From contig OZ245817.1 of assembly GCA_965228475.1 (NCBI GenBank), forward strand, positions 704,001-768,000: a stretch of 64,000 nucleotides of DNA, written 5' to 3'. The position numbers and the translations under genes are program-made. Positions 15,278 through 50,785 of this stretch are shown here, piece after piece; the stretch's first letter is position 1; each line of letters starts with the position of its first letter. The stretch comes from Myxococcota bacterium (lineage in GTDB: Bacteria > Myxococcota_A > UBA9160 > JAFDDA01). The notes under the pieces are model-generated. The model was not told the origin of the DNA, did no database searches, and saw only the letters and a list, made by a program, of their open reading frames with translations.

Positions 15278-15793
15278 TCACTCCGGCGGGGGCGGGTCCG
15301 CGATTGCTCGCCGCAGGTAGAGGTCGCCGTCCCTTCGCTCGTACGGGCGGAAGCCGTGTCGCTGGTAGAACGCGACGACCTCGCTCCAGGTCTCGGTGGT
15401 CTCGAGCATGGCCGTCCGAAAGCCGCGGCGGTGAGCGACGCCGAGGAGGTGGTCGAGCATCCGGGAGCCCAGCCCCTGGCGCCGCAGCCCTCGGGCGACC
15501 GACATGCGGTGGATCTGGACGGTCTCGGACGATACGGGAAGGAATGCGCCGGTGCCGACGAGGGCTTCGCCCTCGAAGGCGCAGGCGAAGTAGCCGGCGG
15601 CGTAGCTCCGGGCGATTTCCCGGAGGTCGGGGTTCAGGCTCTCGTCGATCGAGCCCCAGTGCTCGCCAAGCCCTTCGAGCACGAGCGCGCGCGCGGCAGC
15701 CTAATCGGCTGCCGCGAACGCTCGGAACGTGATCGGGGAGTCGGCCGGCGTCGCTGCGCCCCGCTCAGGCGCGGCGCCGACGGCGCAGGGCAT
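15278..15793 (-). pseudogene. GNAT N-acetyltransferase interrupted by an in-frame TAG near its N terminus
   Basis: ITFRAFAAAD*AAARALVLEGLGEHWG...RMSVARGLRRQGLG...AFYQRHGF; TAG at 15703-15701. A shorter product could start at GTG 15682. The 5' boundary is uncertain. Confidence 0.65.
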
Positions 15794-40021: not shown

Positions 40022-40061
40022 CTTTCGATGGGTCCAGAGCGCTTTCGATGGGTCCAGAGCG
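40022..40061. repeat. Perfect 20-bp tandem repeat in the thioredoxin 5' leader
   Basis: ctttcgatgggtccagagcg x2. Confidence 0.92.
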
Positions 40062-42021: not shown

Positions 42022-43479
42022 TCAGTCCCGGCCCGGCAGCGTGATGCCGAGCTCGACGATCTTCTTGCGCAGCGTGTTGCGGTTGATTCCGAGCAGGGCC
42101 GCGGCGCGGATCTGGTTGCCTCCGGTGCGCTCGAGGGCCGCCGCGATGAGCGGGCGCTCGACGCTCTCGACGAGGCGCCGGTGCACGTCGCTCGTCCCTT
42201 CGGGCGCTTCGAGCGCCGCATCGAGGGCCTCGCCGATGAGGTCGTTCATCGAGCCCGGCTCCTCCGCCTCGACGACCGGCGCGTCGAGGAAGCCGAAGTC
42301 GTCCGGGGAGAGCACCTCCCCCGAGGCGAGCACGAGCGCGCGCTTCACGGCGTTCTCGAGCTCGCGCACGTTTCCCGGCCACGGGTGGTGGGCCAGGTGT
42401 TCGAGGGCCGCCTCGGACAGGAAGCGCGGCGCGCCCACGAGCTCCTCCGCGTAGAGGGTGGTGAAGTGCTCGGCGAGGCCGCGGACGTCGTCCTGGCGCT
42501 CGCGCAGGGCGGGCAGGTGGATCGGAACGATGCGCAGCCGGTAGAGGAGGTCTTCGCGGAAGCGTCCCTCCCGGACCATCTGGTCGAGGTCGCGGTGAGT
42601 CGCCGCGACGACGCGCACGTCGACGCGGTCCGCGCGCCGGCCGCCCACCGACGTGACCTCGCCGTTCTGGAGTACGCGCAGGAGCTTGGCCTGGAGGTCG
42701 ATGGCCATGTCGCCGATCTCGTCGAGGAGCAGCGTGCCGCCCGATGCCTCGCGAAAGCGTCCGGGCCGGGCATCGACGGCGCCCGTGAAGGCGCCGCGTT
42801 CGTGGCCGAAGAGTTCGCTCTCGAGCAGCTCGCGCGGGATGGCCGCCGTGTTCACCGCGACGAAGCGCTCGCCGGCCCGGTCGCTCGCTTCGTGGATGGC
42901 GCGGGCGACGCGCTCCTTGCCCGTGCCCGTTTCGCCCGTCACGAGCACCGGGATGTCGCTGGCCGCGACCTTGCCCACGGTCTTGAACACCTCGAGCATG
43001 GCGTTGCAGCGCCCGATCAGCCGGTCGGTCACGGGGACGGAGCCGGCCTCGCGCCGCAGCAACCGCACCTCGCGCTCGAGGTCGCGGTTGCGCAGGGCCT
43101 TCGCGACGAGGAGGCTCGTTTCGGAGAGCGCGAACGGCTTGCGCAGGTAGTCGAGGGCGCCGAGCTTCATCGCCTCCATCGTGTTGTCGAAGGTGCTCTC
43201 GGCCGTCATCACGACGATCGCGGTCTGGCTGCCGAGCGTGCGCACGCGCTCGAGCACCTCGAGTCCCGTTGCGCCCGGCATGCGGATGTCGAGGAAGGCG
43301 ACGTCGAAGTCCTGGCCCGCGAGCGCTTCGAAGGCGGCCTCGCCGTCGCTCACGGTCACGACCTCGTGGCCTTCGTCCGCCAGCCACTCCTGCATGTTCT
43401 CGAGGATCGAGGCTTCGTCGTCCGCGACGAGGACGCGGGCGCGCTCTCCGGGCGGGCTTTGCGTTCCGGGATCACTCAT
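42022..43479 (-). CDS. ntrC: Sigma-54-dependent response regulator, NtrC-like
   Basis: REC (VADDE, LDIRMP), GETGTGKE, ESELFGHERGAFTGA, WPGNVRELEN, Fis HTH GGNQIRAAALLGINRNTLRKK. Confidence 0.85.
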   Translation of the reverse strand: MSDPGTQSPPGERARVLVADDEASILENMQEWLADEGHEVVTVSDGEAAFEALAGQDFDVAFLDIRMPGATGLEVLERVRTLGSQTAIVVMTAESTFDNTMEAMKLGALDYLRKPFALSETSLLVAKALRNRDLEREVRLLRREAGSVPVTDRLIGRCNAMLEVFKTVGKVAASDIPVLVTGETGTGKERVARAIHEASDRAGERFVAVNTAAIPRELLESELFGHERGAFTGAVDARPGRFREASGGTLLLDEIGDMAIDLQAKLLRVLQNGEVTSVGGRRADRVDVRVVAATHRDLDQMVREGRFREDLLYRLRIVPIHLPALRERQDDVRGLAEHFTTLYAEELVGAPRFLSEAALEHLAHHPWPGNVRELENAVKRALVLASGEVLSPDDFGFLDAPVVEAEEPGSMNDLIGEALDAALEAPEGTSDVHRRLVESVERPLIAAALERTGGNQIRAAALLGINRNTLRKKIVELGITLPGRD

Positions 43480-43561
43480 GGTCTTGCTCCGGCGAGCCAG
43501 GGCGTCGTTCGCTCACTCATAATCTTGCTCCGGCGAGCCAGGGCGTCGTTCGCTCGCTCAT
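43472..43561 (-). repeat. 41-bp tandem repeat (2.2 copies) encoding two chained 14-aa mini-ORFs between ntrB and ntrC (MIRU-like)
   Basis: ORF1 43561-43517 MSERTTPWLAGARL*, ORF2 43520-43476 MSERTTPWLAGARP*; ATGA overlaps at all three junctions; GGAG 7 nt before each downstream ATG. Confidence 0.9.
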
Positions 43562-44664
43562 GTGGGTTCTCCGGCGGTTCGCAGGGGGAGGTGCACCCGG
43601 GCGCGCGTGCCCTTGCCGGGCTCGCCCTCGAGGGCGAGGCGCCCACCGTGGCCCGCGACCCAGTGCTGGGCGATCGCCAGGCCGAGGCCGGTGCCGGCCG
43701 CGCGCGTGGTGAAGAAGGGTTCGGTGATGCGGTCGCGCAGGTCGTCCGGAATCCCGGGCCCGCTGTCGCGGATGGAGATCTCGACGGCGGGGCCGCGCGA
43801 CCGCTCGCCGGTGGCGAGCCGCAGCGCGAGGTCGATGCGCGTGCGGATCTCGAGGCGCGCGTTGCCCTGGGGTTCGCCCTCGTTCATCGCCTGGAGCGCG
43901 TTGCGCACGAGGTTGTGGAAGATCTGGGCGAGGCGGTCCCGGTCCGCCATCAGCTCGGGGATCGAGGGGTCGTAGAGCCGGACGATCTCGACGCCCTCCG
44001 AGAGCGGATCCAGGTCGTGGAGGTCGAGCACGTCGTCGAGCACGCGGTGGAGGTTCACGGCCCTCGGGCGCAGGCGTTCGTCGCGGGCGAGCTCCATGAA
44101 GTCGTCGAGCAGCGCGCTGATGCGGTCCGTCTCGCGCATCACGAGCTCGGCGGTCTTCTTGGCCCGCGGGTCGTCCGAGCGCCGGGCCAGGAGTTCACCG
44201 GCGCCGCGAATCCCGCCGAGCGGGTTCTTCACCTCGTGGGCGATGCCCGCGGCGATGCGTCCGAAGGAAGTCATGCGGTGGCGCTCGGATTCCGCGTCGA
44301 GCAGCTCCCGCTGGATGCTCCGGTCCCGGATCTCGAGGACCACGCCGTCGCCGCGCTCCTCGGCGTCCCGGAACGGCGAGACCGCGATCTCGACGAGCCG
44401 GTTGCCCGAGCCGGTCGCGTCGCCGACCCGCGGCTCGAGCAGGATCTCGTTCTCGACGAGGCCGCGGCCCTCGGCGAGGACCGTGCGCACGTAGCGGGAG
44501 AGCTCGCGGCCGAGCACCTGCTCGACCGGCCGCCGCCGCGCCGTCTCGGCCGAGGTCATGAGCAGCCGGCAGGCGGCGGTGTTCATCTCCCGCACCGTCC
44601 CGCCGGCGTCGATCACCACGACGCCAGAGAGCAGCGCGTCGATCACGAGAGCCAGGTTCTGCAA
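43558..44664 (-). CDS. ntrB: PAS histidine kinase, NtrB/GlnL-like
   Basis: AHEVKNPLGGIRGA, YDPSIPE, NLVRNA, DSGPG, PFFTT, GTGLGL; TTG start after GAGGGG. Confidence 0.83.
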   Translation of the reverse strand: MQNLALVIDALLSGVVVIDAGGTVREMNTAACRLLMTSAETARRRPVEQVLGRELSRYVRTVLAEGRGLVENEILLEPRVGDATGSGNRLVEIAVSPFRDAEERGDGVVLEIRDRSIQRELLDAESERHRMTSFGRIAAGIAHEVKNPLGGIRGAGELLARRSDDPRAKKTAELVMRETDRISALLDDFMELARDERLRPRAVNLHRVLDDVLDLHDLDPLSEGVEIVRLYDPSIPELMADRDRLAQIFHNLVRNALQAMNEGEPQGNARLEIRTRIDLALRLATGERSRGPAVEISIRDSGPGIPDDLRDRITEPFFTTRAAGTGLGLAIAQHWVAGHGGRLALEGEPGKGTRARVHLPLRTAGEPT

Positions 44665-44822
44665 TCCGGCCCCCTCGCTTCGCGCCGCCCCTCGGCCCGC
44701 GCAACCCACCGAAATCAAAGAAGATCGGCGGGTGAGTGCCTATTATTTGGGCAGGCTAGCCGCTCTGCCGCGCTGCGTCGAGCGGCCTTGGCCGAGGCGC
44801 GCGTGCGGGGTAGGGTCCGGCC

Positions 44823-49137: not shown

Positions 49138-50735
49138 CAGGGGGAACCCTCGGCGCGCGGGTCGTTCTCGCGAAGCCCGCGCAGCGCGCGCGTCGGGTCG
49201 TCGCGCGTGCGTTCGAGGAAACGCGCGACCTCTTCGGGGGTGAGTTCGGGCGGCGGGGGAAGGCGGGCACGCTCGGGTTCGGGGGTCTCGTCGCTCGAAT
49301 CGTCGGGCGGCTCGGGGGACGAAGCGTCGGCTTCGGAAGGGCTCGGCTGCGGCGGAGGCGGCGGCGGATTCGCTTCGAGCGCCTGGAGCGTCCACTCGAG
49401 ATTGAAGCGCGCCTCGAGATCCTCGGGCGCGAGCGCCACGGCCTCGAAGAAGGCGTCGCGCGCGGCCTCGAAGCGGCCCGCTTCCAGCGCGGCCACCCCG
49501 GCGCCGTAGTACGCTCGCGCGCTTCGCTCGGCTCGGGTACCGAGCAGGGCCGCGGCGCGGAAGGCGCGTTCGGCTTCTAGCCAATGCCCGGCGTCCGCCA
49601 GGGCCAACCCCCGCTCGAAGGCGCGCTGGTCGCGGGGGGCCGAGCCCGGAGCTGCGGCGACGAGACCCAGCGCGACGAGGATCCCGGCGCGCCCCGCGCT
49701 CGGGATGCGCAGCGTCGGCCAGGAAAACGTTCCGAACGATCCGGCGCGGCCGGGCCGGCCCGCGCCGCCCGGGCGGCGGAGCGCATCGAAGAGCAGGAGC
49801 GCCAGGGCGAGGGCCGCCACGGGCACCGTTCGGACGGCGGGGACGCGCCGCTCGATGAAGCCGGTCTCGGCCGCGAGGGCGGCGTCGCGGCGGACGGCCG
49901 CGAGCAGGGCGGCTTCGTCGACGGCGCCGAAGCGGTCCGTCGCGAGCAGCTCGCCGCCGGTGGCCGAGGCGAGGGCGAAGAGCCGCTCGGTGTCGAGCCG
50001 CGTTCGGACGGGGCGGCCGCGCCGGTCGCGCAGTTCGAGCCCCTGGTTCGGGATGGCGGCGCCCTCTTCGCTTCCGAAGCCGACCGCGACGACCCGCACA
50101 CCGTCGCGCAGGAGTTCGGCCCGTCCGAGGTCGGGCGTGGCGTCGGCGTCTTCGCCGTCCGAGAGGACGACGAGCACGCGGGGCCGCTCACTGCCGGGGT
50201 CGAAGGCTTCGAGGGCGCGGGCGACGCCGGCGCCGAGGCGCGAGGCGCCGGGCCGCACGAGGGTCGTGTCGAGGGCGGGAAGCAATCCGGCGAGGGCGGC
50301 GTGGTCGTGACTGAGCGGCGCGACCAGCACGCCGCGCGCCGCGAAGGCGGCCAGTGCGGCGCGGTCGCCCGGCGCGAGGCCGGCGAGCAGTCCCTCGGCC
50401 GCGCGGCGCGCGCGGTCGAGCCGGCTCGGCGGGACGTCGCGCGCGTCCATGCTGCGCGAGACGTCGAGCAACACGACGACGTCGAGGCCCGAGGCCGAGA
50501 CCCGTTCGACGCGCGTACCCGAGCGCGGCCCGAGGGCGGCGATCGCCACCGCGGCGAGCGCGGCAAGCAGGAGGAGTTCTCTCGCTCCGCCGGCGCCTCC
50601 GCGGGCCGAACTCCCGAACAGGAGCCGACGCCTCCGGGCGGCGCGCACGCGGGCCATCGCGACGGCGGCGGCGAGACCGAGCCACGCGAGCGCGAGCGCC
50701 GGGATCCACTCGGGACGGACGAAGAAGGCGGTCAC
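49134..50735 (-). CDS. vWA + TPR protein (BatB/BatC-like fusion)
   Basis: MIDAS DVSRSM, LSDGED; C-terminal TPR (AYYGAG...ARFNLE). Confidence 0.82.
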   Translation of the reverse strand: MTAFFVRPEWIPALALAWLGLAAAVAMARVRAARRRRLLFGSSARGGAGGARELLLLAALAAVAIAALGPRSGTRVERVSASGLDVVVLLDVSRSMDARDVPPSRLDRARRAAEGLLAGLAPGDRAALAAFAARGVLVAPLSHDHAALAGLLPALDTTLVRPGASRLGAGVARALEAFDPGSERPRVLVVLSDGEDADATPDLGRAELLRDGVRVVAVGFGSEEGAAIPNQGLELRDRRGRPVRTRLDTERLFALASATGGELLATDRFGAVDEAALLAAVRRDAALAAETGFIERRVPAVRTVPVAALALALLLFDALRRPGGAGRPGRAGSFGTFSWPTLRIPSAGRAGILVALGLVAAAPGSAPRDQRAFERGLALADAGHWLEAERAFRAAALLGTRAERSARAYYGAGVAALEAGRFEAARDAFFEAVALAPEDLEARFNLEWTLQALEANPPPPPPQPSPSEADASSPEPPDDSSDETPEPERARLPPPPELTPEEVARFLERTRDDPTRALRGLRENDPRAEGSPW

Positions 50736-50785
50736 GGGAGGCACTCCCAAGCGCTCACGAGAGGCACTCCCCCGGGCTCACGAGA
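50732..50785 (-). repeat. 23-bp tandem repeat encoding two chained 8-aa mini-ORFs between batA and batB
   Basis: ORF A 50781-50755 MSPGECLS*, ORF B 50758-50732 MSAWECLP*; GTGA overlaps at all three junctions; GGGAG-tgc-CTC(T/C)C hairpin before each GTG. Confidence 0.88.

Follow-up and report, generated by a model that had tools for sequence, protein, structure and literature searches.

We found that the junction between an NtrB-like histidine kinase gene and an NtrC-like response regulator gene carries two tandem 41-bp units, which form a chain of two mini-ORFs linked to each other and to both genes by stop/start overlaps. With somewhat better than even confidence, we attribute this structure to local slipped-strand duplication of the junction itself, with the resulting relay of 3n+2 length kept through translational coupling; it would then resemble the interspersed repetitive units of mycobacteria (MIRUs) in function without being a MIRU. 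On this reading, the locus is a clean example of a genome-wide and apparently undescribed route to MIRU-like relays that requires no mobile element.

On the minus strand of the window (the whole 64,000-nt stretch of DNA that was analysed), the TGA that ends the kinase gene (43560-43558) shares bases with the ATG at 43561 of MSERTTPWLAGARL, the TGA of MSERTTPWLAGARL is overlapped by the ATG at 43520 of MSERTTPWLAGARP, and the TGA of MSERTTPWLAGARP is overlapped by the ATG at 43479 of the ntrC-like regulator (Table 1). The earlier note had described this chain from ntrB through both mini-ORFs to ntrC, with a GGAG in either unit placed 7 nt ahead of the next ATG, and inspection of the sequence confirmed it; the first ATG is preceded by a GGAG at the same distance, inside the ntrB tail, so that all three starts have one. 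The '41-mer' quoted in that note counts 39 letters. TRF reported the junction as period 41, 2.2 copies, 92% and a score of 161, ranking first among the 108 rows for the window, and units 1 and 2 are identical at 38 of 41 bases. The 16S tail of the genome is the canonical anti-SD, and the duplex predicted at the GGAG of the ntrC-like gene is weaker than the median of direct overlaps. Neither a sigma-70 promoter nor a terminator was found in the ntrB-ntrC gap, the fold of the unit was not significant compared with shuffles (z-scores of -0.02, 0.12, 0.65 and 0.69), and an Rfam scan of the unit returned only two chance-level matches (E 5-8).

Table 1. Features of the kinase-regulator junction, its flanking genes and a second relay in the window
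Feature	Position	Strand	Remarks
NtrC-like sigma-54 response regulator	42022..43479	-	REC, AAA+ with GAFTGA, HTH_8
Unit 2 / mini-ORF MSERTTPWLAGARP* (45 nt)	43476..43520	-	ATGA overlap at either end
GGAG before ntrC-like ATG	43487..43490	-	7 nt spacing; duplex -5.8 kcal/mol
Unit 1 / mini-ORF MSERTTPWLAGARL* (45 nt)	43517..43561	-	ATGA overlap at either end
GGAG in unit 1	43528-43531	-	7 nt before ATG 43520
GGAG (Shine-Dalgarno-like) in kinase tail	43569..43572	-	7 nt before ATG 43561; duplex -6.6 kcal/mol
Kinase tail with X4 insertion	43560..43590	-	Diverged tail repeat bounded by 9-nt direct repeat
NtrB-like PAS-HisKA-HATPase histidine kinase	43558..44718	-	Stop TGA within ATGA overlap; 5' start codon putative
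Second relay, joining two VWA-domain genes through VSPGECLS* and VSAWECLP* (2 x 23 nt)	50732..50781	-	Unrelated sequence

The kinase scored 194.6 bits against the NCBIfam NR(II) model NF008293 (cut-off 240) and higher, 218.6 bits, against the AtoS model, and the regulator scored 500.7 bits against its best NCBIfam model, TIGR01818 (NtrC; cut-off 558.6). The names ntrB and ntrC had been assigned previously, and they fit the domain order, in which a PAS-HisKA-HATPase kinase is followed by a REC-AAA+(GAFTGA)-HTH regulator; because both proteins fall below the equivalog cut-offs, we call them NtrB/NtrC-like. The evidence does not support a role for the locus in specifically regulating nitrogen signalling. 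Among named relatives, the best ones carry the labels Deltaproteobacteria, Myxococcales or Myxococcota, which bears out the suggestion of a non-actinobacterial host. As a separate observation, the receiver domain of the regulator begins with ADDEASILENMQEW, where relatives read ADDEpSIRFVLRE; the variant is partly common to a genome of the same genus (G001), which suggests that a conserved motif has changed at the level of the genus.

We compared four public contig runs (X1-X4) with the locus; the runs listed as containing it were of DNA type and included no RNA run, which has no bearing on expression. X1 and X2 come from two studies, and one of these two runs is possibly the source sample. 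Long pieces of both are free of differences from the window, and in each run a 68-nt contig (43485-43552) spans the boundary between units 1 and 2 with 0 differences. In X1, the depth of this bridging contig is 27.5, and the flanks have depths of 30.3 and 27.9. These short-read contigs thus support two units and rule out an assembly artefact, the concern that the earlier note had raised in proposing that reads be checked for a single copy. In X3, a 71-nt contig runs across the repeat at a depth of 13, compared with 2-9 nearby.

The number of units differs between strains: two are present in the window, X1 and X2, and one is present in X4, as judged from one contig of depth 2.8, so that the copy-number polymorphism anticipated by the earlier note was observed. 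X4 represents a strain that is ~99% identical, with 15 listed differences in about 1.5 kb. Its contig joins 43469 to 43511, so that 41 nt, one unit's length, are absent (43470-43510), and it shows no differences from 43511 to 43573, so that unit 1 is kept whole. The join falls inside a 10-nt ATGAGTGA microhomology and outside the 33-nt identical stretch, a position at which, we infer, an assembler working with 31-mers would have been unable to collapse the repeat. If a unit had been gained after the strains separated, 2-3 changes would be required against an expectation of 0.26 (P between 0.03 and 0.002), and loss in X4 is therefore the likelier direction; a later loss of one unit at the ATGAGTGA microhomology is probable. 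X4 lacks one unit at two relays, this one and that at 50732-50781. It also carries 30 extra in-frame bases after 43573 (one contig, depth 2.8), a repeat of the kinase tail that represents a further slippage event at the ntrB-ntrC junction.

To place the junction among its relatives, 61 genomes were searched, loci were taken from the best 30, and counts were made over 29 relatives. The ntrB/ntrC junction is a direct -4 overlap in 25 of these and a direct -1 overlap in 3, and the 41-nt unit is present in none of the 29. The empty site predicted for relatives was thus found as a direct stop/start overlap in 28 of 29 cases, and the comparison shows a direct NTGA overlap to be ancestral. The remaining relative, from another family (locus L019 in genome G050), has an independent, TTG-started 14-nt relay, LRSQR*, whose sequence is unrelated. 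Six named loci (L180-L185) also have a direct overlap, and were left out of the 28/29 since they may be the same genomes again.

Such a state could be converted into the observed one by slippage. A slip duplication across the ATGA overlap would copy the first ~20 bases of ntrC together with the last ~20 of ntrB, and the copied ntrB end would probably bring its GGAG along. If the duplicated length is 3n+2, both halves stay in their native frames, and the mini-ORF would consequently be stop-free and end in a new ATGA; this geometry would yield an open mini-ORF without selection or design. The unit would then have diverged and been duplicated again, giving the two copies that now agree at 38 of 41 bases. 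The earlier note had stated that the unit matches neither gene end beyond ATGAG and so looks inserted, which proved wrong: unit 2 is in register with the ntrC start, with which it has ATGAGTGA and ACGC in common, and it has CGCCGGAG in common with the ntrB end at an equal distance from the stop. Each unit was scored as a downstream-gene start plus an upstream-gene end, against 650 other direct junctions. For unit 2, only 4 of the 650 matched or beat its own junction; the resemblance of unit 1 was weaker, with 32 of 650 scoring equally. The likeness of the units to their own junction gives moderate support, at the level of sequence comparison, for a local origin. By eye, the unit also seemed to resemble the junction of the same-genus genome G001, but this likeness was not significant (111 and 187 of 650).

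We then consider relays across the studied genome (G000), using gene calls from a codon model built for this analysis (4141 genes; putative starts). Direct -4 overlaps join 649 co-oriented gene pairs, and NTGA relays link a further 103. In phase-2 gaps, a relay is completed downstream of 86 of 121 genes ending in NTGA, whereas for the remaining stops the count is 153 of 406 (P = 1e-10); the difference recurs in G001 (1.47 of ~4.8 Mb), with counts of 26/33 and 33/88. Because 153 of 406 other stops also complete a relay, some of the 103 relays must be due to chance. This phase-matched test replaces frame-shifted controls (16 and 32 of 187), which are not like-for-like.

The relays are seldom shared between genomes. 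Across 387 conserved adjacent pairs in G000 and G001, G000 relays correspond to direct -4 overlaps in 16 of the 26 rows (one junction appears twice, so that the count without repetition is 15 of 25) and to a relay, of unlike sequence, in only 1 of 26; conversely, 13 of 18 G001 relays are direct in G000. Direct overlaps of G000 are direct in G001 in 71 of 106 cases, and ordinary gaps in 8 of 161; in this respect the relays behave as direct overlaps do and differ from gaps. These ortholog counts are a sample, drawn from 1.47 of ~4.8 Mb of G001 and 0.4 of 5.8 Mb of G040. No sequence family was found among the units of the 103 relays, the best cross-locus matches being 10-12 nt. Resemblance to the own junction at P ≤ 0.01 was found for 14 of 79 true single relays and for 0 of 95 pseudo-relays, and 57 of the 79 had no self-resemblance detectable at P ≤ 0.05. 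Relays are a transient, lineage-specific state of direct overlaps, arising at least partly by local duplication. The second relay in the window is an example of the same process as the ntrB-ntrC relay: X4 lacks 23 nt at 50738, and G001 has a direct overlap there.

Several other relays were observed. At G000:C1:1341766 (minus strand), a three-step relay consists of 35-nt units, two of them identical, and the downstream gene starts like the unit; it is the clearest young junction duplication that we have seen. At G000:C1:3852908 (plus strand), a second kinase-to-regulator junction carries a six-codon relay, VREATR*. Three more NTGA relay candidates lie in the window at 15281 and 20930 (minus strand) and 46073 (plus strand), corresponding to 719281, 724930 and 750073 of G000.

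The lengths of the duplications bear on whether coupling has been selected. Duplications on an NTGA stop have periods of 3n+2, 3n and 3n+1 in the proportion 17:4:1, with the ntrB-ntrC locus counted and a few of the 22 possibly reflecting miscalled genes; the same counts are 8:10:8 on TAG and 3:4:4 on CTGA. Of the microhomologies available for slippage, 41% at 4 nt and 58% at 8-9 nt lie at 3n+2; they are commoner at this length through codon periodicity, since each copied half is then read in its own frame. Among microhomologies, the share at 3n+2 therefore sets the supply, and relative to it the 3n+2 excess has P values from 0.002 to 0.055 (17/22 against 0.585, P = 0.055). For the scarcity of 3n+1, the P values range between 0.0009 and 0.064 according to which supply model is used. 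Selection for coupling probably adds to the mutational bias, and the excess would then reflect codon-phase-biased slippage together with weak purifying selection. The 3n+2 period described in the earlier note is therefore real, but its reading as a design that preserves coupling has to be shared with mutational bias; the period alone does not demonstrate design, as slippage is already tilted toward this phase by codon periodicity.

Unit lengths also showed an excess at 23 nt, found in 23 of 103 relay loci, whereas among 169 pseudo-relays it occurs in 8 (P = 2e-5 in a post hoc comparison), with a weaker excess at 35-41 nt in G000. The corresponding counts for 23 nt were 5/28 and 1/49 in G001, and 0/8 and 3/8 in G040. 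Intergenic tandem repeats in the genome are commonest at ~12 and 18-23 nt, which may explain part of the 23-nt excess.

Coupling is best at short spacings and declines with distance in the part of PMC12548453 available to us, and the excerpt of PMC10666635 likewise describes a steep drop. An 80-nt gap without a relay would therefore be expected to lose coupling. We propose that ribosomes would terminate and reinitiate successively from ntrB through the first and second mini-ORFs to ntrC, with some de novo initiation likely at every GGAG; the mini-ORF peptides would have no role, and the effect on the NtrC level would be small and nearly neutral. Judging from the arrangement of starts and stops, the relay would preserve ntrB-ntrC coupling across the 80-nt insertion. 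Termination-reinitiation at NTGA overlaps (PMC12548453, PMC10666635) is the mechanism predicted at all three ATGA steps, whereas the cases in the portions of these papers at hand are single overlaps or upstream short ORFs rather than chains of duplicated overlaps.

It is also conceivable, if unlikely, that the units arose locally and that the relay is a translationally irrelevant scar, with ntrC starting de novo and the 3n+2 length due to mutational bias only. The ntrC gene has its own GGAG, which no significant structure hides (z about 0 to 0.7), and coupling may therefore not be needed. Consistent with a scar, no inhibitory structure was found at the ntrC start, the Shine-Dalgarno strength at the last start of relays is similar to that of direct overlaps (median -6.6 and -6.9 kcal/mol, P = 0.24), the relays are not conserved in G001, and the microhomology supply itself leans to 3n+2, leaving 17/22 marginal. 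However, 3n+1 is almost missing among junction duplications (17:1), and the retention of the ancestral overlap in nearly all relatives across the order suggests that coupling matters.

The earlier note had instead regarded the unit as an inserted interspersed element, and this view did not survive the search for further copies. With ≤10 mismatches allowed in 39, an approximate-match search of the genome (5.0 Mb, one contig) recovered only the two tandem copies, and BLASTN against two same-family genomes returned nothing past short chance matches and the ntrC start, so that the proposed check for copies elsewhere was negative. Exact-pattern scans of metagenome and viral contigs, in which very near genomes may be missing, gave no match. 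A dispersed repeat family is ruled out by the genome and same-family searches and by the lack of a family among the relay units. In the available excerpts of PMC12548453 and PMC3184786, MIRUs are described as units of ~40-100 bp, present in about 40-50 copies per genome, with G-C-rich internal inverted repeats; they are thought to be mobile, and they carry tetranucleotide direct repeats and an ORF that overlaps both neighbours at -4. In the part of PMC3110155 available, they are merely named among other repeats.

The present unit is like a MIRU, as described in those excerpts, in its size and position at an operon junction, in its internal ORF overlapping both neighbouring genes at -4, in its occurrence in a two-component operon, and in a tandem copy number that varies between strains (2 versus 1, X4 from one contig). 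Empty and filled sites with ATGA on both sides are a further likeness, which is not diagnostic since junction duplication predicts both. In contrast to MIRUs as those excerpts present them, the unit occurs at one locus rather than dispersed genome-wide, lacks inverted-repeat structure or a significant fold, resembles its own flanks, and belongs to a Myxococcota-type rather than a mycobacterial host, in which ~103 relays share no sequence. Because it lacks the dispersal, the inverted-repeat structure and the host of MIRUs, we do not class the unit as a MIRU; of the analogy drawn in the earlier note, the mini-ORF with -4 overlaps and the 3n+2 period stand. It is accordingly very unlikely that the locus is the relict of a mobile MIRU-like element that targeted an NTGA overlap and was then duplicated in tandem: the 4-nt direct repeat and the other likenesses would suit that description, and the resemblance to the flanks is only moderate, but no other copy, family or inverted-repeat fold was found within the sequences searched, and junction duplication predicts the empty site and 4-nt repeat equally well.

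Variable-number and other short tandem repeats arise by slipped-strand events, with near-identical head-to-tail copies, loss at microhomologies and variation between strains. The ntrB-ntrC units share the copy arrangement, the microhomology loss and the strain-level variation, and differ in being anchored on a stop/start overlap and in the 3n+2 enrichment, whereas tandem repeats in coding regions of this genome are 3n in 317 of 400 cases. A search of titles and the opening lines of abstracts, covering journals other than subscription ones, returned no published account of relays formed by junction duplication.

We regard as very doubtful the proposal that unit number is a selected contingency switch for the kinase:regulator ratio, an adaptive tuning knob. 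Strains that are otherwise nearly identical do differ in unit number, a relay is also present at one more kinase-regulator pair of the genome, and the first description of MIRUs concerned a two-component operon, according to the title of Supply 1997. However, enrichment of relays at two-component junctions is not significant (of 21 kinase/regulator pairs, 2 have a relay and 4 a direct overlap; P = 0.19, small numbers), X4 varies equally at the unrelated VWA-gene junction, the two units disagree at 3 of their 41 bases, which would be unlike rapidly switching arrays, and the unit is not conserved in relatives.

A broader, rather improbable extension of local duplication is that NTGA overlaps are self-renewing expansion sites, of which ~1 in 7 become relays, with a preferred 23-nt step set by the geometry of the ribosome, acting as a reversible stoichiometry dial and as precursors of MIRUs. 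If this were true, unit number would be a heritable and reversible dial on operon protein stoichiometry, including that of the two-component pair, and locally born units could feed the origin of mobile MIRU-type families. The natural alleles with 0, 1 and 2 units at one kinase-regulator junction provide a series for measuring successive termination-reinitiation. Elsewhere in the window, a perfect 2 x 20-nt tandem repeat (40022-40061) lies in the gap downstream of a nucleoside-transporter (NupC-like) gene.
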